The position numbers and the translations under genes were made by a program. Shown here piece after piece: positions 5,837 to 56,358 of a stretch of 64,000 bases of DNA. Positions within the stretch are counted from its first letter, which is position 1. Every line of letters begins with the position of its first letter. Under the pieces are notes generated by a model that saw nothing but the letters and a program-made list of their open reading frames with translations, was not told where the DNA came from and made no database searches. Origin of the DNA: Eledone cirrhosa (Eukaryota); contig OZ024745.1 of NCBI GenBank assembly GCA_964016885.1, forward strand, positions 37,324,001 through 37,388,000, written 5' to 3'.

Positions 5837-5879
5837 CAATGATATTAATAAATGGGAGTTATCTTTATAAAACCATATT

Positions 5880-5940
5880 TATTTTATTATATATATTTCA
5901 AGGGTGCCAAAATGTTGGTACGCTCTCATCAGATAAAATA
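5880..5940 (-). ncRNA. Hammerhead ribozyme motif (inverted arm copy)
   Basis: TTTC at 5896, TCATCAG at 5926; mirror of 6064-6124. Confidence 0.7.
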
Positions 5941-6063
5941 CAAAAGTTGTTTTATAAATAGTGACATATCCAAAAACAAGAACTTATCGTTTTAACTTCA
6001 GTTTGGATATCCAAATAAGTTCTTGTCTTTTTGAATATGTCACTATTTGTAAAACAACTTTTG

Positions 6064-6124
6064 TATTTTATCTGATGAGGGCATACCAATATTTTGGTAC
6101 CCTTGAAATATATATAATAAAATA
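6064..6124 (+). ncRNA. Minimal type I hammerhead ribozyme motif
   Basis: TATTTTAT-CTGATGA-GGGCATACCAA-TATT-TTGGTACCCTT-GAAA-TATATA-TA-ATAAAATA. Confidence 0.8.
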
Positions 6125-6255
6125 AATATGGTTTTATAAAGATAGTTTCCATTTATTAATATCATTGATATTATACTCCAGAAGAAATCTGTAGAGAGCT
6201 TCGAATCTGTTATAAATAAATTTGTTGAATATCCAACAAATTAAATAACTTTTTG

Positions 6256-9456: not shown

Positions 9457-11531
9457 TTATCTCTTTCTCTTAATTTCGAGTATATTTTTTTGACCGGTCA
9501 CCTTCCTGGTGGCAAGGTTGTAAAAGAAAAGAAATATTCATCCCTTGAATCGCAAGAATGTTTTGCAAATTTTGAAGGTGCCAGCTATCGCAGCCATTTG
9601 TAGACTATGAATTAGGGAGCTGCGCTCTTTGTCCGCAAATCCAAGTTCAGTCATACTTTGGTCCAAGCGGGTTGGTATATAACCCGTAGCTCCAATAATG
9701 ATGGGTATGAAGCTAAAGGTGTATCTTGGATACTGGATTTGTAAACTCCTTATCAATGGTTCGTAGATGTCCTCCTTCTCCTGTATTTTTCTGACAACGT
9801 TTACATCAAGTGGGCAGCTGATCCACACAACAGAACACGTTTTCAATGTGTGGTCCCAAACAACAATATCAGACCGGTTGTGCTTTAATTTGGTGGCAGT
9901 TTTTATTTTCAGGTTCCACCAGTATTCCTTAGTGCCATCTGTCTCAATATATTCTTCCTCGTTTGTTGTTAATTTTGTTTTCCGAAGTGCGTTCCAGATG
10001 GTTCTAGCTATCCCATCGTGTCTCATGGGGAGGTAGTAGCGAGATGACATTCTTTCGCAGCAGGCAACAATGTGGCTTACATCCTCGATCTTTGTTTTAC
10101 ATAGCCTACATTTATTGCCCGCTGATGGTCCTCCCCTTTTGTGCAGCAGATATTTGGTAGGGAGTTCTTGTTCCTGTATTGCATAGAGATATCCCTCAAG
10201 GTGTGATGTCATAAACTTGTCGGAACTCCATGCCAGGCTTTTTGAGTGGTTTATCCCCTCTATAGTCTGTGTTTTACGTCTCAAGTATCCATGCACAACT
10301 TTTTCTGTAAATTGTTCAATTTTTTCATCTTGTTTGAACATTGAATAGGATCTTCCGATTTCTCTGGGTGAGAGATTTATATCAGGCTTTATTCCATATC
10401 TCTCCTCCAGATCAGTGGCTATTCTAATGATATATTTTTTTTCATACTCATAAACCTGGGCAAGATGGTTACCAACCTTTTTCCTCTGTTGAAGGTGTTG
10501 CTTCAGTGTTACTATCCGGGTCTCATATGATGTTAATATGGATTTTAGACCCCGGCCACCTTCCTTGCGTGAGAAGTATAGCCTATCCACATCACCATTG
10601 ATGTTAAAGTAACACTGAGAAATTTGCGAGTTCTAACATCCATCTCACTTAGTTTTGCAATGACCAGTTCAGCAGGCCAAATGTTGGCGTTAGAATTGGC
10701 AGCATATGTATTGTGGGCAATGTATTTGTTGTACGCTGACAGTTCTGATGATCATATTTTCTTTACTCTTCTGAGGTATTCAGTTCTGGTTCTCTCCTTA
10801 TTTATGGGTCCATCATATCTGACATCCTCATCCTGTCCAAGATATCTGTAGTTGTCACCTGACTGTAGAGGTTTTATTGTCAGGCCGTTCATCTCTAGAT
10901 TTCTAGAGGAGGGCACATCTCTTCCACGTTTTACTACCAAATATGCACACTTGGACTCACCAAATTTCATTTTGATGTCTGTTGAAAATTGTGTAATGAG
11001 GCCCAATTGTTTCTTGATGTCATTGATATTTGGCCCATACAACTTCAGGTCATCAACAAAGAAAAGATTGGAGATACTTCTGGACCCACTTCTTTGTCCA
11101 CCTTGTTTCCTGGGTAGGTAAGATAGTGGATTTAGTGAGAGAACGAAGAGTAGCACTGACAAGCTATCACCCTGAAAGATGCCCTTCTGGTAATGTATCT
11201 TATCAGTCTTAACCTGCTCCTTCTCACCTCTAAGGATCAAATTGGTGTACCAGTTCTTGGTCAGACGTTCAACAGCAGCTACCAGTGGTTGTGGGACTTT
11301 GGCTAACTGTAAAGCCTTAACAATCCACCCATGAGTTACACTATCAAATGCTTTTTGATAGTCCAGCCACACCACAGTCATGTTTCTGCGATTCTTTGTT
11401 GTTTTTTCTTGAATCATTTTATTAGTTAGTAGGTGATCTATGCAACCCCACACCTCCCTCTTTCCACCAGCTTGCTCAGGTGTTATGATGTTGTTGGTAG
11501 CACAGTGATCCTGTAAGAACAGGTTAATGTA
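9457..11531 (-). mobile_element. R4/Dong-type RLE non-LTR retrotransposon, 5'-truncated and frameshifted
   Basis: ORFs 10752-11453 ([31 protein letters not shown]) and 9538-10590 (CRLC..HIVACC knuckle, decayed RLE motif RSDIV..WISCP..KEDIY); short 3' UTR; (TATG)-like tracts at both ends. Confidence 0.9.
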
Positions 11532-16223: not shown

Positions 16224-17965
16224 TTTTCTCTTTCTCTTAATTTCGAGTATATTTTTTTGACCGGCCACCTTCCTGGTGGCAAGGTTGTAAAAGAAAAGGA
16301 ATTGTCATCCCTTGAATTGCAAGAATGTTTTGCAAATTTTGAAGGTGCCAGCTATCGCAGACTATGAATTAGGAAGCTGCGCTTTTTGTCCGCAAATCCA
16401 AGTTCGGTCATACTTTGGTCCCAGCGGGTTGGTATATAACCCGTAGCACCAATAATGATGGGTATGAAGCTAAAGGTGTATCTTGGATACTGGATTTGTA
16501 AGCTCCTCATCAATGGTCCGTAGATGTCCTCCTTCTCCTGTATTTTTCTGACAACGTTTACATCAAGTGGGCAGCTGATCTCCACAACAGAACACGTTTT
16601 CAATGTGTGGTCCCAAACTACAATATCAGGCCGGTTGTGCTTTAATTTGGTGGCAGTTTTTATTTTCAGGTTCCACCAGTATTCCTTAGTGCCATCTGTC
16701 TCAATATATTCTTCCTCGTTTGTTGTTAATTTTGTTTTCCGAAGTGCGTTCCAGATAGTTCTAGCTATCCCATCGTGTCTCATGGGGAGGTAGTAGCGAG
16801 ATGACATTCTTTCGCAGCTGGCAACAATGTGGCTTACATCCTCGATCTTTGTTTTACATAGCCTACATTTATTGTCAGCTGCTGGCCCTCCTCTTTTGTG
16901 CAGCAGATATTTGGTAGGGAGTTCTTGTTCCTGTATTGCATAGAGATATCCCTCAAGGTGTGATGTCATAAACTTGTCGGAACTCCATGCCAGGCTTTTT
17001 GAGTGGTTTATCCCCTCTATGGTCTGTGTTTTACGCCTCAAGTATCCATGCCTAACTTTCTCTCTAAATTGGTCAATTTTTTTTTCTTGTTTGAACATTG
17101 AATAGGATCTTCCGATTTCTCTGGGTGAGAGATTTATATCAGGCTTTATTCCATATCTCTCCTCCAGATCAGTCGCTATTCTAATGATATTTCTTTTTTC
17201 ATGCTCATAAACCTGAGCAAGATGGTCGCCAACCTTTTTCCTCTGTTGAAGGTGTTGCTTCAGTGTTACTATCCGGGTCTCATATGTTGTTAATATTGAT
17301 TTTAGACCCCGGCCACCTTCCTTGCGTGAGAAGTATAGCCTATCCACATCACCATTGATGTTAAAGTTCCCAGTAACACTGAGAAGTTTTTGAGTTCTAA
17401 CATCCATCTCACTTAGTTCTTGCAATGACCAGTTCAGTAGGCCAAATGTTGGCGTTAGAATTGGCACAGCATAGGTATTGTGGGTAATGTATTTGTTGTA
17501 TGCTGACAGTTCTGATGACCATATTTTTTTTACTCTTCTGAGGTATTCAGTTCTGGTTCTCTCCTTATTTATGGGTCCATCATATCTGACATTCTCATCC
17601 TGTCCAAGATATCTGTAGTTGTCACCTGACTGCAGAGGTTGTATTGTCAGGCCGTTCATATCTAGATTTCTAGAGGAGGGCACATCTCTTCCACGTTTTA
17701 CTGCCAAATATGCACACTTGGACTCACCAAATTTCATTTTGATGTCGGTTGAAAATTGTGTAATGAGGTCCAATTGTTTCTTGATGTCATTGATATTTGG
17801 CCCATACAACTTCAGGTCATCAACAAAGAAAAGATGGGAGATACTTCTGGGCCCACTTCTTTGTCCACCATGTTTCCTGAGTAGGTAAGATAGTGGATTC
17901 AGTGAGAGAACGAAGAGTAGTACTGACAAGCTATCACCCTGAAAGATGCCCTTCTGGTAATGTAT
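16224..17965 (-). mobile_element. R4/Dong-type RLE non-LTR retrotransposon, 5'-truncated, young
   Basis: Same 3' UTR as the 9457 copy; both junctions in pure (TATG)n. Confidence 0.92.
16352..17962 (-). CDS. Partial RT / CCHC zinc knuckle / restriction-like endonuclease (PD-(D/E)xK) polyprotein
   Basis: [36 protein letters not shown]-like [48 protein letters not shown]; a 10-bp deletion near 16360 alters the C-terminus relative to the 9538 copy. Confidence 0.88.
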
Positions 17966-18042
17966 GTATGTATGTATGTATGTATGTATGTATGTATGTA
18001 TGTATGTATGTATGTATGTATCTATGTATGTATGTATGTATG

Positions 18043-18646
18043 TCAGGTCACCAGTTGGTGGTACTGGTAACATGTATCCCAGTACAACCTGCCTCATGGT
18101 CGGGTCGTTGGCGACTAAACTGGCAACCCCACCAAGGTTTCTTGGTGAGGGGGGTGACTTTGGACATCCTGTAGGACTAAAAACAAAACCTGTCAAAGGG
18201 CAAAGGACCTCTTAAGAGTCAATGGCCATCCAAAAGCAGCGGGAGAGATGACCCCTTAGCCTTTGTCAAGGCAGAATTCTAGGAGAAGGAAAACTCGGAT
18301 GAAACACCTGCAACCCTGATGGTGTCCAATGATGTTGACGTGTTCTTCTTTTGGTAAATATCATCTTGGTTAAGAGAGTGGGACTGGCTTTGTGCAGTGC
18401 CTTGTTCACTATAAAAGCTTCACGGCACAGGCATTGCTTTATATCTGGAGATCTCTCTGCACTTGTCGTCACATGGTACCATGGGCCCAGCACTATGTGT
18501 CAATAATTGTCACAGGTGTATGACTGTACCAGAGTTTTCAAGTCGCTGGCTGGACTAAAAAGTCACACTCGTTCAGCGCATCGGTAGGGGTTCTCCTACA
18601 TGGATATAAAGTAATGGCTGTACTCGAAAACGAGTTGGCAGCCACC
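18043..18646 (+). mobile_element. Non-autonomous RTE-tailed retroposon, subfamily 1
   Basis: Structured 5' end related to 19087; 3' stem-loop CTCG-AAAA-CGAG followed by (ATGT)n; no meaningful ORF. Confidence 0.65.
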
Positions 18647-26058: not shown

Positions 26059-26245
26059 TGGTGGATTGGCAGTATCGGTAGAGGGTCGGACGCCATGCTT
26101 TCCAGCATAGTTACGTCCCTTTACGATCTGAGTTCAAATCCCGCCGAGGTTGACTTTGCCTTTCATCCTTACGGGGTCGATAAAATAAAGTACCAGTAAT
26201 GCACTGGGTAATTGCTGGCCTTGTGCCTAAAAGTAGAAACAATTA
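26059..26245 (+). mobile_element. tRNA-derived SINE, family A
   Basis: Near-identical to 11938-12123. Confidence 0.85.
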
Positions 26246-26308
26246 TCTATGTCTGAGAAAAGTAAACGAATAAACCATCTCTCTCTATATATATTTATAT
26301 ATATATAT

Positions 26309-28283: not shown

Positions 28284-28392
28284 GCACTAACGTAGCGTGG
28301 TTCATCTATTATAAAGGTGTATATGCATAATAGACATATATAAGTCTTGATGTGACTGTTTCAAGCTAGTGGCCGTGTGAGACCGAAAGAAA

Positions 28393-28580
28393 ATAATTGT
28401 TTCTACTTTTGGCACAAGGCCAGCAATTACCCAGTGCCTCACTGGTACTTTATTTTATCGACCCCGTAAGGATGAAAGGAAAAGTTGACCTCGGCGGGAT
28501 TTGAACTCAGAATGGAAAGGGCCGTAACTCTATGCGTCAAAGCATGACGTCCGACCCTCTACCGATACTGCCAATCCACA
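28393..28580 (-). mobile_element. tRNA-derived SINE, family A
   Basis: Reverse complement of the family consensus. Confidence 0.85.
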
Positions 28581-32077: not shown

Positions 32078-32260
32078 GGATTGGCAGTATCGGTAGAGGG
32101 TCGGACGCCATGCTTTCCAGCATAGTTACGTCCCTTTACGATCTGAGTTCAAATCCCGCCGAGGTTGACTTTGCCTTTCATCCTTACGGGGTCGATAAAA
32201 TAAAGTACCAGTAATGCACTGGGTAATTGCTGGCCTTGTGCCTAAAGTAGAAACAATTAT
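32078..32260 (+). mobile_element. tRNA-derived SINE, family A
   Basis: Near-identical to 26059-26245. Confidence 0.85.
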
Positions 32261-32261
32261 T

Positions 32262-32301
32262 TCTCTGATGAAGTTACTAAGAAGACTAGAAACTAGCCAG
32301 A
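32262..32301 (+). ncRNA. Decayed minimal hammerhead motif
   Basis: TCT-CTGATGA-AGTT..GACTA-GAAA-CTAG-CC-AGA; palindromic CTAG, but U16.1 is replaced by C. Confidence 0.45.
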
Positions 32302-32975: not shown

Positions 32976-33120
32976 TATAATTGTTTCTACTTTTGGCACA
33001 AGGCCAGCAATTACCCAGTACATTACTGGTACTTTATTTTATCGACCCCGTAAGGATGAAAGGCAAAGTTAACCTCGGCGGGATTTGAACTCAGATCATA
33101 CTGGGAGGTAACTCTATGCT
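32976..33120 (-). mobile_element. tRNA-derived SINE, family A, lacking its 5' end
   Basis: Reverse complement of the 3' three quarters of the consensus. Confidence 0.8.
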
Positions 33121-33135
33121 TCAATAATATATATG

Positions 33136-46689: not shown

Positions 46690-47072
46690 TAACTGTTTCT
46701 ACTTTAGGCACAAGGCCAGCAATTACCCAGTGCATTACTGGTACTTTATTTTATCGACCCCGTAAGGATGAAAGGCAAAGTCAACCTCGGCGGGATTTGA
46801 ACTCAGATCGTAAAGAGACGTAACTATGCTGGAAAGCATGGCGTCCGACCCTCCACCGATACTGCCAATCCACCGCCTTTCAGTAATTGTTTCTACTTTA
46901 GGCACAAGGCCAGCAATTATCCAGTGTATTACTGGTACTTTATTTTATCGACCCCCGTAAGGATGAAAGGCAAAGTCAACCTCGGCGGGATTTGAACTCA
47001 GATCGTAAAGGGACGTAACTATGCTGGAAAGCATGGCGTCCGACTCTCCACTGATACTGCCAATCCACCGCC
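46690..47072 (-). mobile_element. Tandem dimer of SINE family A
   Basis: Two full copies, 46690-46878 and 46884-47072. Confidence 0.85.
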
Positions 47073-47100
47073 CTTATATATATATATATAACGGCGATGA

Positions 47101-47201
47101 ATTAGTTTTGCGAGGTTTTTTATATGAAATCGTGTGTCGAAACAAATATTGTTATACTTAGGGAGGGTCATATTTGTGTAATATTCCCAGAATTAATAAC
47201 A

Positions 47202-47204
<3 letters not shown>
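47101..47204 (-). mobile_element. Isolated 3'-terminal fragment of the PLE at 50172-52581
   Basis: Reverse complement of about 52481-52581 with few mismatches; abuts (TA)n. Confidence 0.85.
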
Positions 47205-47853: not shown

Positions 47854-48199
47854 AATATACATATACATTGGCGGGCTGGGTCTAATATATTGGTTGCCAA
47901 GAAGAGAAAATGGGACCACACACAACTATAATACTATCATTTAACTTTAATATCGAATAACTAAAATGTTTAAAACATCCTTTCTATTTTGTGGTTGCAA
48001 TTGACCGTAAAATTTGTAAAATAAAAATACGGATTATTGAATATGTTAAAACATATTTAACTTCTCGAATAAAAAAGATCTTGTGAAATATACACATCCA
48101 CAAAATAGTAGTAATGAGCATCAGTTTTCACACTCAATTTATATATATATATATATATATTGAGTGTGAAAACCAATGCTCATGTATATATATATATAT

Positions 48200-48618
48200 A
48201 ATATAAGATCAAAAGATCGTTAAAAAAGTTCCAAGTATTTTATTATGTGCATTTCAAAAACAAATATCATCATGAGATGATATCTGCGTTTTCATCAGAT
48301 GAAATAGGGATACATGATATAAATCTTAAAAAAACACTTGTGAATAGTGAAATTTTAAATCAACATGTTGATTTAAAACTTCTCTATTCACAAGTGTTTT
48401 TTAAGATTTATATCATGTATCCCTATTTTATCTGATGAAAACGCAGATATCATCTCATGATGATATTTGTTTTTGAAATGCGCATAATAAAATACTTGGA
48501 ACTCTTTTAACCATCTTTTGATCTTATATTATTTATACTCCAGTCCTACAAACTGTAGAGTGCTACTTATCCGATATTTGCATTGCTTTATTGTGCTACA
48601 ATAAAACTCACCTCCTAC

Positions 48619-48620: not shown

Positions 48621-48697
<77 letters not shown>

Positions 48698-49214
48698 ATA
48701 CTTGGGGAGGGTCATATTTGCGTAATATTGCCAGAATTAATAACAGAACACACTCACTGTTTGGTTGGTTTTCGCTTCTCGCTGTCTTTTATATCTGCGA
48801 TCTAACTTACTCGGTCCTCAATGTTGCCATTGACTGACCGACGGTCAAAAATAATACAGATACAATATAGACACAAACACATATATATAGTTTACATAAT
48901 TTACATAAATCTTTCGTTGCACATCTGCAACATCGTCAGTGGTGTTATATTTTTTTTCCTCCTGTTGTGTTGTATGTCTACGCCATTTTTTATTCAGTCT
49001 GTCTATATATTTATTTATTTATTTGCTTGTTTGTTTATTTTATTTTGTCTTCTTTGCGCATGCGTTTGAGTGTGTGTATAGTGTTATGTGTGCTGTGTGA
49101 CTAGTGTGTATAGTGTTGTGTCTGTTGGGTGACTAGTGTGTGTTTATGTGCTTGTTGTTATTGTGCTTGTGTATGTATTTATTTATCTTATTTTATTTTA
49201 TTTTATTTACTTAT

Positions 49215-50126
49215 TTATACTTCTCTTAGGTCAGTGTTGTTTGTTTGGGTGTTGTTGTTGTTCCACTCATTCTTTCTGTTTAGCTTTGGTCTTCTAATTT
49301 CTATTTCACTCGCCTCTCTGATTTGCCTATCTGCTGGGTCATTCCTATGTTTAGATATTATTCTAATTTCTATGTTGTCTATGTTACCGTCATGTTGTTG
49401 TCTAGCATGTTCGTATAGTACTGACCCGTTTTTTCGTCCTTTTAGTTCCCCCCAGTGTTGGTCTATCCTTTCACCTATGCTACGAGCTGTCTCACCTATG
49501 TATGTTGTTGTCATGTTTCTGCAAGTACCCTCTGTACATCTTATGCTATAGACTACGTTTCTAGTTTTACAGTTTATCCGGGGGTTCACCTTACATATGA
49601 TACATTTCCTATTGGTACAGTGGGTTTTCTTAAAATGGTAGGTTTTGCTGATCAGGGATTTTATGGTGGTTCCTGGCTTTTCTACCACCTTTATTTTTAA
49701 GTGGGTCTTTCTCAGGGCCTTTCTACACTGGTTAGCTAATTTCCCTCCAGGGGTGGCATCCACAAACATGACACTCTGATATCTCTGGTTGTCGTACCAT
49801 GATGTGGCCTTCCCTATCTTATGTCTAGCCCTATCTAAGCTATTCCATGATTTGCTCCTGTATAGTGGGCAAATTCCTTTCATGTCCAGTTCTATGAGGG
49901 TCTTATACTTTTCCATGGCTCCTTCGTATACTCTGACTCTGTCTCTTTGGTTGTAGCCAGAGAACTGCATGCGGTTGATGAAGTGTTGGATGTGTCTTTC
50001 CATTTCTGTTGGGTCGCACATGCTGGACACATTCTTCATCACTCGTACCAAATCTGCGATCAGAATATTAAACTTAGCACTACTGGACATTGCTGAGTTT
50101 TTGAGTATCAGGTATTTGGAGGCCAT
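49215..50126 (-). CDS. Inverted duplicate of the PLE C-terminal half (RT thumb, Zn finger, GIY-YIG endonuclease)
   Basis: 303 aa matching the C-terminus of 50145-52019 except two visible substitutions (KVV/KMV, YHF/YPF). Confidence 0.8.
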   Translation of the reverse strand: MASKYLILKNSAMSSSAKFNILIADLVRVMKNVSSMCDPTEMERHIQHFINRMQFSGYNQRDRVRVYEGAMEKYKTLIELDMKGICPLYRSKSWNSLDRARHKIGKATSWYDNQRYQSVMFVDATPGGKLANQCRKALRKTHLKIKVVEKPGTTIKSLISKTYHFKKTHCTNRKCIICKVNPRINCKTRNVVYSIRCTEGTCRNMTTTYIGETARSIGERIDQHWGELKGRKNGSVLYEHARQQHDGNIDNIEIRIISKHRNDPADRQIREASEIEIRRPKLNRKNEWNNNNTQTNNTDLREV

Positions 50127-50171
50127 GGGTTTAGCATAGTGTGAGTGGAGAATTTGGGCTCTCTCGTCTAT

Positions 50172-52019
50172 AGTGTAGTTGCTAGCTATATTAGCTCCGC
50201 ATACAGGATCTCCTACTTCCTCTCAATCGTTATACGCCCCATAATCAAGATGTCCCCAGATGTATGTGAAAGTACAGAGGACCTCCTCAGCAGAATCAGT
50301 GAGTGCAACAAAAACAGGAGCCTATCCAACTGCATAATAGGCAGCATGGATGTGGTGTCACTGTACCCATACATTAACATTGATTTTGCTGTGAAAACAT
50401 GTGTGGAGATGATCATTGAGAGTGAGGTGGAGTTCTTTGACGTCGACACAGACGAACTGGGCCTCCTACTTAGACTTACCTACGACACTGACTACCTAGA
50501 CAGCCATGACCTTAGATGTTTCTGCCCTAGTAGACCTATAAGAGGTAGACCCCCCACCATAACCTCAATGGCAAAAAAGACTCCCATAAGAAGGTGGATT
50601 GGGTGGACCAAAGCTATACGGACCCCCCAAAACACTGATCAGGTAAGAAAAATGGTCGCACATGCAATAGGGGCTAGTATCAAAACTACCCTAAAGGGCC
50701 ACATATTTAAGTTCAATGAGAAAATCTACACCCAAAATGAGGGAGCAGCCATTGGCGTCAGCATAGCTGGTGATGTTGCCAACCTTTTCATGGTATGGTG
50801 GGAAAGGAGACTTAAAGATCTCCTTAATGAAAGCTCCATAGACCTCATCATGTACTCTCGTTATGTAGACGATATCAATATAGTTATAAGAACACCCCCA
50901 CTAGAGAGCACTAACAAGTTTGATTTAGAACGTAGCACGATGGAAAGCATCCAGCAGATAGCTAATTCCATACACCAGAGTATAACTGTAACTATCGACT
51001 TCCCTTCCAAACACCCTAACAATAGACTACCTGTATTAGACACAGAACTCTGGATTAACACTATAGACGAGAGAGCCCAAATTCTCCACTCACACTATGC
51101 TAAACCCATGGCCTCCAAATACCTGATACTCAAAAACTCAGCAATGTCCAGTAGTGCTAAGTTTAATATTCTGATCGCAGATTTGGTACGAGTGATGAAG
51201 AATGTGTCCAGCATGTGCGACCCAACAGAAATGGAAAGACACATCCAACACTTCATCAACCGCATGCAGTTCTCTGGCTACAACCAAAGAGACAGAGTCA
51301 GAGTATACGAAGGAGCCATGGAAAAGTATAAGACCCTCATAGAACTGGACATGAAAGGAATTTGCCCACTATACAGGAGCAAATCATGGAATAGCTTAGA
51401 TAGGGCTAGACATAAGATAGGGAAGGCCACATCATGGTACGACAACCAGAGATATCAGAGTGTCATGTTTGTGGACGCCACCCCTGGAGGGAAATTAGCT
51501 AACCAGTGTAGAAAGGCCCTGAGAAAGACCCACTTAAAAATAAAGATGGTAGAAAAGCCAGGAACCACCATAAAATCCCTGATCAGCAAAACCTACCCTT
51601 TTAAGAAAACCCACTGTACCAATAGGAAATGTATCATATGTAAGGTGAACCCCCGGATAAACTGTAAAACTAGAAACGTAGTCTATAGCATAAGATGTAC
51701 AGAGGGTACTTGCAGAAACATGACAACAACATACATAGGTGAGACAGCTCGTAGCATAGGTGAAAGGATAGACCAACACTGGGGGGAACTAAAAGGACGA
51801 AAAAACGGGTCAGTACTATACGAACATGCTAGACAACAACATGACGGTAACATAGACAACATAGAAATTAGAATAATATCTAAACATAGGAATGACCCAG
51901 CAGATAGGCAAATCAGAGAGGCCAGTGAAATAGAAATTAGAAGACCAAAGCTAAACAGAAAGAATGAGTGGAACAACAACAACACCCAAACAAACAACAC
52001 TGACCTAAGAGAAGTATAA
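50172..52019 (+). CDS. PLE reverse transcriptase with C-terminal GIY-YIG endonuclease, N-terminally truncated
   Basis: SMDVVSLYPYI, FKFNEKIYTQNEGAAIG, RYVDD, LPVLD; CTNRKCIIC..C linker; NVVYSIRC..C..YIGETARSIGERIDQH..EH..H..REASEI..PKLN. Confidence 0.93.
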   Translation, partial: SVVASYISSAYRISYFLSIVIRPIIKMSPDVCESTEDLLSRISECNKNRSLSNCIIGSMDVVSLYPYINIDFAVKTCVEMIIESEVEFFDVDTDELGLLLRLTYDTDYLDSHDLRCFCPSRPIRGRPPTITSMAKKTPIRRWIGWTKAIRTPQNTDQVRKMVAHAIGASIKTTLKGHIFKFNEKIYTQNEGAAIGVSIAGDVANLFMVWWERRLKDLLNESSIDLIMYSRYVDDINIVIRTPPLESTNKFDLERSTMESIQQIANSIHQSITVTIDFPSKHPNNRLPVLDTELWINTIDERAQILHSHYAKPMASKYLILKNSAMSSSAKFNILIADLVRVMKNVSSMCDPTEMERHIQHFINRMQFSGYNQRDRVRVYEGAMEKYKTLIELDMKGICPLYRSKSWNSLDRARHKIGKATSWYDNQRYQSVMFVDATPGGKLANQCRKALRKTHLKIKMVEKPGTTIKSLISKTYPFKKTHCTNRKCIICKVNPRINCKTRNVVYSIRCTEGTCRNMTTTYIGETARSIGERIDQHWGELKGRKNGSVLYEHARQQHDGNIDNIEIRIISKHRNDPADRQIREASEIEIRRPKLNRKNEWNNNNTQTNNTDLREV

Positions 52020-52285
52020 ATAAGTAAATAAAATAAAATAAAATAAGATAAATAAATACATACACAAGCACAATAACAACAAGCACATAAACACACACTA
52101 GTCACCCAACAGACACAACACTATACACACTAGTCACACAGCACACATAACACTATACACACACGCAAACGCATGCGCAAAGAAGACAAAATAAAATAAA
52201 CAAACAAGCAAATAAATAAATAAATATATAGACAGACTGAATAAAAAATGGCGTAGACATACAACACAACAGGAGGAAAAAAAAT

Positions 52286-52360
52286 ATAACACCACTGACG
52301 ATGTTGCAGATGTGCAACGAAAGATTTATGTAAATTATGTAAACTATATATATGTGTTTG
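52286..52360 (+). ncRNA. Hammerhead motif in the PLE 3' UTR (mirror copy at 48875-48948, minus strand)
   Basis: CTGACGA-T-GTTGCA-GATG-TGCAAC-GAAA-GATTTATGTAA-A-TTATGTAAAC-TA; stem I (AACACCA / TGTGTT) is imperfect and offset by TATATA. Confidence 0.65.
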
Positions 52361-52577
52361 TGTCTATATTGTATCTGTATTATTTTTGACCGCCGGTCAG
52401 TCAATGGCAACATTGAGGACCGAGTAAGTTAGATCGCAGATATAAAAGACAGCGAGAAGCGAAAACCAACAGTGAGTGTGTTCTGTTATTAATTCTGGCA
52501 ATATTACGCAAATATGACCCTCCCCAAGTATAACAATATCTGTTTCGACACACGATTTCATATAAAAAACCTCGCTA

Positions 52578-52615
<38 letters not shown>

Positions 52616-55639: not shown

Positions 55640-55764
55640 TCAAGTTATGCAAGACAAACGCGGGGATAAAATAAGACAAAATCTTATTAGTTTCACGCAA
55701 AAACAAGATGGCGTAGGACAGAACAAAGGAGAGGCACAAAAACAACAAAAAATAAGAATCCCCA

Positions 55765-55807
55765 GTCACTGAAGAGGTCACAGAATGTGTGACGAAAGAA
55801 CTTTGAC
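55765..55807 (+). ncRNA. Minimal type I hammerhead motif in a PLE 3'-UTR fragment (about 55698-55965)
   Basis: GTCA-CTGAAGA-G-GTCACA-GAATG-TGTGAC-GAAA-GAAC-TT-TGAC; flanks resemble the 3' UTR of the large PLE (ATGGCGTAG upstream, ACCCTCCC..ATAACAATAT terminus). Confidence 0.75.
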
Positions 55808-55959
55808 AATATATGAACAACCGTCCGGTTGTGGAGCCAACCAATCAACCAACCGGAAATTGATAAATTCTTAAATTTATAAATTTAATTTATAATAAAT
55901 TGGAGTGAAAGCAACTGGTGCGTGTGTTTCTTATTGGCAACATAACCCTCCCAAAGCAT

Positions 55960-56058
<99 letters not shown>

Positions 56059-56101: not shown

Positions 56102-56351
56102 TATTATGAAAATAAACCAAAGAACCCTTCAATACATCAAAAGTCTTTATTAGCCAACAATGTTTCGTCCTATTAAGGACTCATCAGGGCAATTAAAGCT
56201 ATAAGAAGCACTATCGGTCAATAGTTTTTGGCTTGTATTGACCGATAGTGCTTCTTATAGCTTTAATTGCCCTGATGAGTCCTTAATAGGACGAAACATT
56301 GTTGGCTAATAAAGACTTTTGATGTATTGAAGGCTTCTTTGGTTTATTTTC

Positions 56352-56358
<7 letters not shown>
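56102..56358. mobile_element. Fold-back mini-element with two inverted canonical hammerheads
   Basis: Arms about 56102-56223 / 56236-56358; minus-strand HHR at 56152-56192; right end abuts (TA)n. Confidence 0.82.
56269..56306 (+). ncRNA. Minimal type I hammerhead ribozyme motif
   Basis: GCC-CTGATGA-GTCC-TTAATA-GGAC-GAAA-CATTG-TT-GGC. Confidence 0.85.

Follow-up and report, generated by a model that had tools for sequence, protein, structure and literature searches.

Within the window, the 64,000-nt stretch of Eledone cirrhosa DNA analyzed here, positions 48690-52581 hold a 5′-truncated PLE copy that is preceded by an inverted partial copy of itself and lies between two (TA)n arrays (Table 1). 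The inverted arms, 48690-50176 on the minus strand and 51058-52539 on the plus strand, align with 1,476 matches, six substitutions, and one 5-nt indel; the left arm terminates in ATAT and fuses with the (TA)36 array at 48621-48693, and the sense copy extends 42 nt beyond the arm (52540-52581) before meeting (TA)14. The first-pass annotation had described a recently inserted PLE with a ~1.5-kb near-perfect inverted arm that ends at ATAT and merges into (TA)n, together with a one-sided 42-nt tail into (TA)n, and this description stands, with RT plus GIY-YIG, pseudo-LTR, inverted arm, and one-sided tail all fitting PLE identity. PLEs with an endonuclease characteristically leave an inverted 5′-truncated copy and a one-sided tail of 30-40 nt (PMC8557442, PMC3846280), as found here. 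Read from the sequence, the arms, the 42-nt tail, and the bilateral (TA)n are thus the published PLE insertion signature, and the locus is otherwise ordinary. A (TA)5+ edge is within 2 nt of just 1.9% of window positions, but each of the three related insertions in the window adjoins one, so the (TA)n association is not chance. The ends of insertions at the locus all share 2-4 nt with TA, which chance may explain.

Table 1. Features of the PLE locus and its neighboring copies (window positions)
Position	Strand	Feature	Basis
47090-47204	-	Short 3′-end copy, same family, 95% identical, tail 12 nt longer, TA arrays on both sides	
48621-48693	.	Left target flank, (TA)36 array	Sequence
48690-50176	-	Inverted arm that copies element 51058-52539, tail excluded: end of thumb, linker, nuclease, 3′ UTR, pseudo-LTR	Arm alignment
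48912-48939	-	Hammerhead ribozyme core of left arm	Pattern scan
50172-50177	-	Deletion junction within left arm: element 50205-51057 (853 nt) gone, 3-nt microhomology	
50175-50207	-	Element sequence (33 nt, RT motif 2 region) from just upstream of the sense fragment; contains the hairpin-folding 24-nt spacer 50178-50201	tblastn of P0001 residues 272-284, fold
50202-50207	.	True head-to-head pivot, an inverted repeat of 6 nt; in the intact element it closes the spacer	
50202-52019	+	5′-truncated ORF, 605 codons: RT from just past motif 2, thumb, linker, GIY-YIG nuclease	
50421-50633	+	Conserved insertion of ~70 residues (~74-144), located between RT motif A and motif B′ where telomerase has its insertion-in-fingers; predicted fold mostly helical	
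50862-50873	+	RT motif C (YVDD)	
51615-51641	+	CX4CxxC zinc-finger-like linker motif, residues 472-480, short Nematis-type spacing to nuclease	
51672-51965	+	GIY-YIG endonuclease domain, CCHH motif	I-TevI catalytic domain Z 10.4, rmsd 2.2, 88/92 aligned
52020-52513	+	3′ UTR and pseudo-LTR, putative TATA-like box 52441-52448	Sequence
52295-52322	+	Minimal type-I hammerhead core: 6-bp helix II with 5′ bulge, weak helix I	Pattern scan
52514-52582	+	First 23 ORF codons of the element, ATG at 52514	3/3 differences to 47171 copy synonymous
52540-52581	+	Tail of 42 nt, codons 9-23, right end only	Arm alignment, ORF-start comparison
52581-52610	.	Right target flank, (TA)14 array	Sequence
55699-55966	+	Diverged related pseudo-LTR fragment, hammerhead 55769-55797, stops in (TA)n at the short boundary, without tail	

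The 0.4% divergence between the arms corresponds to ~0.56 Myr (range, 0.21-1.22) at an octopus rate from another species, quoted in PMC13282606, which would make the copy about half a million years old. The arms differ at seven places and each has derived changes of its own; the left arm agrees with the family at 51546, at 52393, and at the indel, and the right arm keeps a conserved Pro (Pro in 79/82 relatives) that is His in the left. A higher divergence of the spacer than of the arms was considered and set aside, since among the sites displayed only two in 856 nt are at single-locus depth (0.23%), equal to the per-arm value.

The ORF is open to the stop at 52017-52019 and retains catalytic motifs A and C as well as the nuclease residues; the RT-GIY-YIG frame is indeed uninterrupted from the truncation point, but at such divergence it would be open by chance 85% of the time. 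Compared with 12 long relatives the ORF is without 281-469 N-terminal residues, among them the DKG motif and motifs 1 and 2 of the RT, so that ~40% of the protein is missing. There are also private changes of Ser to Tyr in motif A (Ser in 72/76 relatives) and of Val to Met (Val in 77/84 relatives); both pseudo-LTRs face outward, and an upstream pseudo-LTR is absent. To judge from its sequence, the copy is likely dead. Its nearest named relative is an Octopus vulgaris protein (66%), next to which the window protein lies in a tree without outgroup. In one run of unrecorded kind (X6), the read profile is uneven and 3′-heavy.

Downstream of the ORF, the organization is that of PLEs with an endonuclease, in which a pseudo-LTR consists of 3′ UTR plus ORF start in tandem and carries a hammerhead; here there is a candidate core with helix II and a weak helix I. 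Its architecture matches a minimal hammerhead (PMC4209133), although the cores emerged from the pattern scan, with no hammerhead match in Rfam at gathering scores. Three further loci (L001, L005, and L003) have the 3′ UTR/ORF-start arrangement seen at 52514, and in L003 the 3′ UTR is followed by the N-terminal domain within a 936-nt direct repeat. An ORF start followed by (TA)n was seen at two of 19 related loci, ends being scored at those two only. The comparison with the 47171 copy indicates that the 42-nt tail encodes the ORF start of the element.

The RT departs from canonical C-terminal-endonuclease PLEs (Penelope/Poseidon, Neptune, Nematis, and Hydra), which lack a fingers insertion (PMC8557442). 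The window protein shares with them a single ORF with RT and CCHH-bearing GIY-YIG, a hammerhead pseudo-LTR, 5′ truncation, an inverted truncated copy, an ORF-start-overlapping tail, and microsatellite targets; it differs in a distinct motif B′ and in the ~70 extra residues that separate motif A from B′. The A-to-B′ distance is 131 residues here and at least 120 in 166 of 167 measurable relatives (303 fetched), a set biased toward carrying the insertion since it was collected using the window protein or its profile. These relatives are 1,000-1,200 residues long, those with names come from octopus and sea cucumber, and insertion-bearing members span 22-55% identity, a depth comparable to that of an entire clade. 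Published C-terminal-nuclease PLEs have ~60 residues between these motifs and telomerases have 110-152. The last PLE classification confines the insertion to PLEs with an N-terminal nuclease and some without any nuclease, and does not decide between many losses and many gains.

The likeness to telomerase is one of position and length. The RT with its insertion has a confident predicted fold whose top three structural matches are all TERTs (Z 13.8, rmsd 3.8, 211 aligned), consistent with a telomerase-like RT. The whole-domain TERT match aligns 207-213 of 300 modeled residues, and most of the insertion probably lies outside the superposition. The telomerase insertion-in-fingers is largely beta; here the insertion is predicted to be helical, and it has no sequence match to telomerase. 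Among solved structures, sequence searches found nothing beyond weak RT or chance matches, a Pfam search of the window protein did not detect the nuclease and left RVT_1 below cut-off, and RVT_1 recovers just 14 of 70 lineage members at E 0.01, which matters for annotation of a family that fills 5% of RAD reads.

The nuclease, C-terminal in 115/116 relatives, and the linker tell a different story from the Neptune-like assignment first proposed. The linker CxxC is followed by the next Cys after seven residues here and after 5-14 in 203/204 relatives; by hand count in the published alignment the spacing is seven in 3/3 regular Nematis rows versus 25-27 in 4/4 Neptune rows. The nuclease end resembles Nematis/Poseidon, and the Trp of the Neptune nuclease end is absent in all 100 relatives scored. 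Neptune elements have a Cys-rich linker between RT and nuclease, a CX2-5CxxC finger, and microsatellite targeting in common with the window copy, but have 60 residues from A to B′ and no insertion; linker and nuclease likewise speak against the assignment. Nematis agrees in its CX2-5CxxC linker, the seven residues to the next Cys, the thumb-linker stretch, and the nuclease C-terminus; however, printed Nematis RTs have 63 residues from A to B′ and a different motif B′, and printed members come from nematodes and a flatworm. Hydra-clade elements lack CCHH, have a CxCX5C linker, and lack the insertion. Naiad/Chlamys elements likewise have an insertion in the fingers, target (TA)n, and reach very high copy numbers, and Naiads are known from Octopus, but their nuclease is N-terminal and they have no hammerhead; their A-to-B′ distances are 84-87 (Naiad) and 105-122 (Chlamys, two rows counted).

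The combination of an insertion-bearing RT with a Nematis-type nuclease probably marks a lineage not yet described, and two readings of its rank are to be weighed. There is nearly an even chance that it is an ordinary branch of a named clade, Nematis or the Neptune group (paraphyletic in PMC8557442), that gained an insertion and perhaps went unremarked in repeat libraries: linker spacing and nuclease C-terminus match Nematis, and the available text of PMC13282606 annotates 30 'Penelope' families with recent activity in O. vulgaris but gives them no clade names. Against this stand the short A-to-B′ distances and other motif B′ of printed Nematis and Neptune RTs and the clade-like depth of the insertion-bearing relatives. 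Somewhat more tentatively, it may be a deep PLE clade, distributed across marine animals and at very high copy number here, that pairs a Nematis-type C-terminal GIY-YIG with a telomerase-sized, well-folded fingers insertion, breaks the rule linking the insertion to N-terminal nucleases and telomerase, and has escaped notice because standard RT profiles fail on the insertion. Six short lineage protein motifs had no match in the printed alignments of the PMC8557442 supplement (whose family sequences are DNA), and an Atlas search returned unnamed or generic PLE clusters. The fingers insertion has served to connect telomerase with its sister group, the PLEs, so a large C-terminal-nuclease lineage with an insertion of telomerase length bears on the loss-versus-gain question; its enzymes would allow the insertion to be removed and assayed, and an undescribed clade would be a natural test of its role in repeat-primed synthesis.

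The center of the locus also needed revision. The inversion junction had been placed at 50172-50176, but minus-strand 50175-50207 codes for 11 residues immediately N-terminal to the plus-strand homology in the O. vulgaris relative P0001 (12/13 identical), and in other copies 50178 is joined to 50202 on opposite strands and followed by upstream ORF (four contigs of X1; 172 reads with five starts in X22). The pivot is therefore 50202-50207, and 50172-50177 marks the 853-nt deletion. These copies thus keep the spacer in sense orientation and run on upstream, and loose ends lie behind 50204/50207. An inverted-repeat partner within 40 nt exists for only 11 of 2,287 element positions.

We favor, with a probability of about 0.75, the reading that this is a single copy, 5′-truncated and likely dead, of a (TA)n-associated PLE that is very abundant and has the conserved ~70-residue A-B′ insertion and a Nematis-type C-terminal nuclease; a full-length copy elsewhere likely produced it, with priming on both target strands and fold-back of the cDNA. 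The nuclease of that full-length copy would act on a (TA)n array and cut both its strands; one cut end would prime cDNA at ORF codon 9, giving the left arm, and the other at codon 23, giving the tail. The first cDNA would halt just beyond the natural hairpin, fold back on the 6-nt inverted repeat, and copy itself into the sense arm, which would then meet the second cDNA. The resulting palindrome, with ~2.3-kb arms and a 24-nt spacer, would be unstable and lose 853 nt beside its center; long arms with a short spacer are unstable, and long spacers are stable (PMC7999016). Self-priming has been proposed at head-to-head palindromes (PMC3846280), and the junction at 50172-50207 would be an unusually clear trace of this proposed but unproven step of the PLE cycle. 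In vitro, PAc (Poseidon of Anolis carolinensis) initiates at two sites and extends both strands, without any need for homology to the cut DNA (PMC11167929). As proposed here, the PAc tail lies between two initiation sites in the ORF start, with both strands cut and extended; PAc differs in its Poseidon-type protein without a linker finger and in initiation 111-118 nt into the ORF rather than at ~25 and 68 nt.

It is less likely, though worth weighing, that two cDNAs primed on opposite strands annealed through the self-complementary hairpin and that the 853-nt gap is a template jump during left cDNA synthesis, so that a long perfect palindrome never existed. This would derive the tail asymmetry and the gap from one event, and it accords with the 3-nt microhomology and with internal skips in other copies (3 of the 15 RAD joints shown). 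The gap, however, ends 3 nt from the spacer edge, within the pivot hexamer, which would be rare for a random jump over 2.3 kb and natural for a palindrome-center deletion, and the small palindromes in the window, with spacers of 0-27 nt, fit fold-back. The order of fold-back and deletion would have to be read from a single locus, which does not reveal it.

That the inverted arm is a fold-back chimera of assembly or amplification is very improbable. The assembly of the locus is supported only indirectly: junctions specific to it are spanned by none of the reads and contigs listed, and reads ending at 52573-52610 were excluded as repeats in read mapping. Yet a chimera would yield identical arms rather than seven differences with derived changes in each, predicts neither an internal deletion nor a biologically placed tail, and raw reads of the family contain many further inversions.

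Reads of the same organism contain the family in very large numbers. It matches 16,088 contigs in X1 and 635,803 of 12,467,656 RAD records (5% of RAD reads in one run), and summed contig depth, which is not copy number, rises from 70 thousand at 50100 to 1.27 million at 52452-52535. Of the 15 RAD joints shown, 10 are further opposite-strand joints. Small shares of family matches occur in 14 other organisms, which the analysis leaves aside.

Scarcely credible is the first-pass suggestion that the window copy is intact enough, as a Neptune-like element, to supply RT and nuclease in trans to nearby mini-elements: it has 605 open codons with motifs A and C and the nuclease residues, but the missing ~40% of the protein, RT motifs 1-2 included, and the damaging private changes make it implausible as an enzyme source, the DKG motif and upstream pseudo-LTR are lost too, the linker is not Neptune-type, very many other copies exist, some extending further 5′, and read-through RNA would form a 1.5-kb duplex, which is likelier to be a substrate for silencing or editing. 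Nor is it a likely template for the mini-elements, as the copy at 47090-47204 has a longer 3′ end. Of the two fragments nearby that had been called related, this copy belongs to the same family and the one at 55699-55966 is only a diverged relative, with a score of 89 against 42.7 ± 6.5 for shuffled sequences (maximum 65 of 300).

The element at 48690-52581 is a real, young and probably dead Penelope-like element (PLE) copy of known architecture. When its left arm (48690-50176, minus strand) is aligned with its sense arm (51058-52539, plus strand), 1476 positions match, 6 are substituted and the two differ by a single 5-nt indel; ATAT closes the left arm and passes into (TA)36, and the sense copy runs 42 nt beyond the arm end before entering (TA)14. 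The near-perfect inverted arm and 42-nt sense tail in (TA)n described in the first-pass annotation thus stand, as does its uninterrupted RT-GIY-YIG frame, which is open on the plus strand to 52019. TA arrays adjoin all three related insertions in the window (this element, 47090-47204 and 55699-55966); there are 131 arrays of (TA)5 or longer, and 1.9% of window positions are no more than 2 nt from an array edge. The arms, tail and TA flanks all agree with the PLE signature as the available text of the sources gives it: a 5′-truncated inverted copy with a 30-40-nt tail in microsatellite targets (PMC8557442, PMC3846280), with two internal initiation sites flanking the tail and each target strand being cut and extended (PMC11167929).

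By its coding content, the 42-nt tail belongs to the start of the element ORF. A frame that begins with an ATG at 52514 runs through it, and the 47090-47204 copy, which extends 12 nt beyond the tail end, has 3 differences in the 23 ORF-start codons, all synonymous (chance ~0.015). Ends were scored in three of 19 related loci: L001 and L005 (43% and 42% protein identity) carry 7-8 codons of a similar N-terminus and then (TA)n, and L003 has a 3′ UTR followed by an N-terminal domain, in tandem arrangement. Beyond its terminal (TA)n, L005 (1771-1861) also resembles the N-terminal motif of another PLE, which suggests nesting at TA arrays. A pattern scan finds a minimal hammerhead core at 52295-52322, of the kind described in the accessible part of PMC4209133; an Rfam search did not report a hammerhead there.

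The inversion junction, previously assigned to 50172-50176, lies elsewhere. The minus-strand frame starts with 11 residues that in P0001, an Octopus vulgaris protein, directly precede the start of plus-strand homology (12/13 identical). In the intact element a 24-nt spacer, which folds into a hairpin, is enclosed by a 6-nt inverted repeat; just 11 of 2287 element positions have a 6-nt partner in inverted orientation no more than 40 nt away. Other copies join 50178 to 50202 on opposite strands in four contigs of sequencing run X1 and in 172 raw reads of run X22, which have 5 starts between them; loose read ends past 50204-50207 encode, as judged by eye, residues upstream of motif 2. Because these reads make the join and continue upstream, they confirm the intact order, and since the spacer is flipped in our copy, the pivot is 50202-50207. 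The second junction, at 50172-50177, is a deletion: 853 nt (50205-51057) are absent from the left arm, with 3-nt microhomology. Among the pieces listed from the runs compared, none spanned a locus-specific junction, and the element 3′ end was skipped as repeat.

We propose that a (TA)n array was cut on both strands, with one end priming at codon 9 to give the left arm and the other at codon 23 to give the tail. The first cDNA would halt just beyond the hairpin, fold back on the 6-nt repeat and copy itself, so that the sense arm formed and the spacer ended up antisense, as observed; the sense strand would then join the second cDNA, the source of the tail. The resulting palindrome would be of the unstable kind, its arms being 2.3 kb long and its spacer 24 nt. 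Palindromes can lose central pieces from one side, and the 853-nt gap starts 3 nt from the spacer. The portion of PMC7999016 available describes palindromes with long spacers as stable and those with long arms and a short spacer as unstable. Alternatively, two cDNAs may have annealed, the gap being a template jump; a single locus gives no choice between this and fold-back. Spacers of 0-27 nt separate the arms of three small head-to-head elements in the window that carry hammerheads.

Small head-to-head palindromes lie beside (TA)n at 5837-6167, 48201-48529 and 56105-56354, two of them with a clear hammerhead core in each arm, and probably represent truncated insertions from other PLE families; the first two have one-sided extensions of ~90 nt and then the next TA array. 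Inverted pairs with central (TA)n occur at 55481-55543/55636-55698, joining the PLE fragment at 55699, and at ~48100-48180; these could reflect target-flank copying after TA-end fold-back, a way of attaching the 5′ end.

The 605-residue protein encoded by the element is likely an undescribed variant in which a C-terminal nuclease of Nematis type accompanies a fingers insertion of telomerase length. Its motif A Asp lies 131 residues from the first Gly of motif B′, and in hand-counted rows of the published alignment (PMC8557442 supplement, seen in part) this exceeds Neptune (60, two rows), Penelope (61), Nematis (63, two rows), Naiad (84-87, two rows) and Chlamys (105 and 122), falling within the range of three telomerases (110-152). 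What is available of PMC8557442 gives the fingers insertion as absent from canonical PLEs and reported for Naiad/Chlamys and sporadically Coprina. The protein's own profile, with which the relatives were gathered, matches 2293 representatives at an E-value of 1e-30 or lower, the best 150 of which were considered. Among 303 proteins fetched, the distance is at least 120 in 166 of 167 measurable relatives (P0060 has 91); 132 cluster representatives are 22.5 to 54.7% identical to the window protein. The insertion carries invariant residues of its own. A 300-residue RT model including it is confidently folded (pLDDT 92.9), and the structures that it matches best are those of telomerases (Z 13.8, rmsd 3.8, 211 aligned; Z 12.9; Z 12.8); since the core has ~230 residues and at most 213 align, the insertion is unlikely to superpose on that of telomerase. 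The likeness is one of position and length, and we claim no homology.

The label Neptune-like does not survive, as the linker CxxC lies 7 residues from the next Cys, as in three Nematis rows, and not 25-27 as in four Neptune rows (PMC8557442, same alignment); the nuclease end, too, resembles Nematis/Poseidon. The spacing is 5-14 in 203 of 204 relatives, and the nuclease is C-terminal in 115 of 116 with a nuclease match. Neptune and Nematis were reportedly named in a 2006 paper. P0190 (1517 residues) has linker and GIY-YIG nuclease ahead of an insertion-bearing RT, either by tandem-copy read-through or by independent domain permutation as in Naiad. The RT fits no printed C-terminal-nuclease clade; eight clades are still listed in the accessible part of a 2026 preprint (10.64898/2026.07.22.740005). 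Our tree, built without outgroup from 57 of 120 rows after thinning at 50% identity, gives no lineage placement, and we put a separate clade in a proper RT tree at somewhat under even odds. The open literature, as distinct from subscription papers, Repbase and Dfam, yielded no paper on such an insertion-bearing lineage.

The full protein model (mean pLDDT 89.1) matches telomerases over its RT portion and the I-TevI GIY-YIG domain at residues 491-588 (Z 10.4, rmsd 2.2, 88/92 aligned); the closest named relative is an O. vulgaris protein (66%), which suggests an octopod as host. Recent insertion, as first suggested, is upheld by arm divergence: 6 substitutions over 1482 nt correspond to 0.56 Myr (0.21-1.22) at 0.0036 per Myr, a rate from the available part of PMC13282606, assuming separate arms, as conversion between them would make the estimate too young. 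The same source already catalogues 31 PLE families of O. vulgaris with recent activity. The trans-acting enzyme, contrary to the earlier proposal, could not plausibly come from this copy, because it is truncated (compared with 12 long relatives it has lost 281-469 N-terminal residues, among them the DKG motif and motifs 1 and 2), has private changes (Tyr in motif A, where 72 of 76 relatives have Ser, the Tyr allele reaching a depth of 12.5 of 118,912 in X1; Met where 77 of 84 have Val), has both pseudo-LTRs pointing outward, and its 605-codon frame would have an 85% chance of staying open anyway at 0.2% divergence.

Reads or contigs from four of 24 runs were compared with 50100-52610. X1 gave 16,088 matching contigs (3906 at 99% identity or above, 5356 at 95-99%, 4940 at 90-95%, 1886 below 90%), and their depth climbs from 70 thousand near the 5′ end to 1.27 million over the pseudo-LTR, the pattern of 5′ truncation; in X22, 635,803 of 12,467,656 records match. 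Among the joints listed (222 further), 11 of 15 are opposite-strand, one being the spacer joint, and inversions are therefore common in the family. Run X4, from a second organism, contains pieces that are almost the same (2 differences in 457 nt, 2 in 456, 0 in 115 and 8 in 506). These (4 differences in 1028 nt on three contigs) have depth far below that of the abundant-element organism, further organisms share sequence words with the element, and either close kinship or horizontal transfer may account for this. In run X6 the nuclease and pseudo-LTR have the greatest depth (up to 11,600) and the RT has little.

Other repeats in the window
Feature	Position	Strand	Content
Broken non-LTR retrotransposon copy	9538-11531	-	RVT_1 and zf-RVT
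Broken non-LTR retrotransposon copy	16352-18211	-	RVT_1 and zf-RVT
SINE-like repeat, ~190 nt	46690-47072 (tandem dimer), 26061-26246, 28391-28579, 32078-32262, 33014-33124

The two non-LTR copies are related to each other and have no kinship to the PLE; the SINE-like repeat presumably resembles octopus SINEs. Five O. vulgaris gene models (P0099, P0101, P0105, P0106 and P0107) join the same truncated PLE RT piece to unrelated exons, likely through annotation contamination or exonisation, and one bears the name dynein regulatory complex subunit 6-like.
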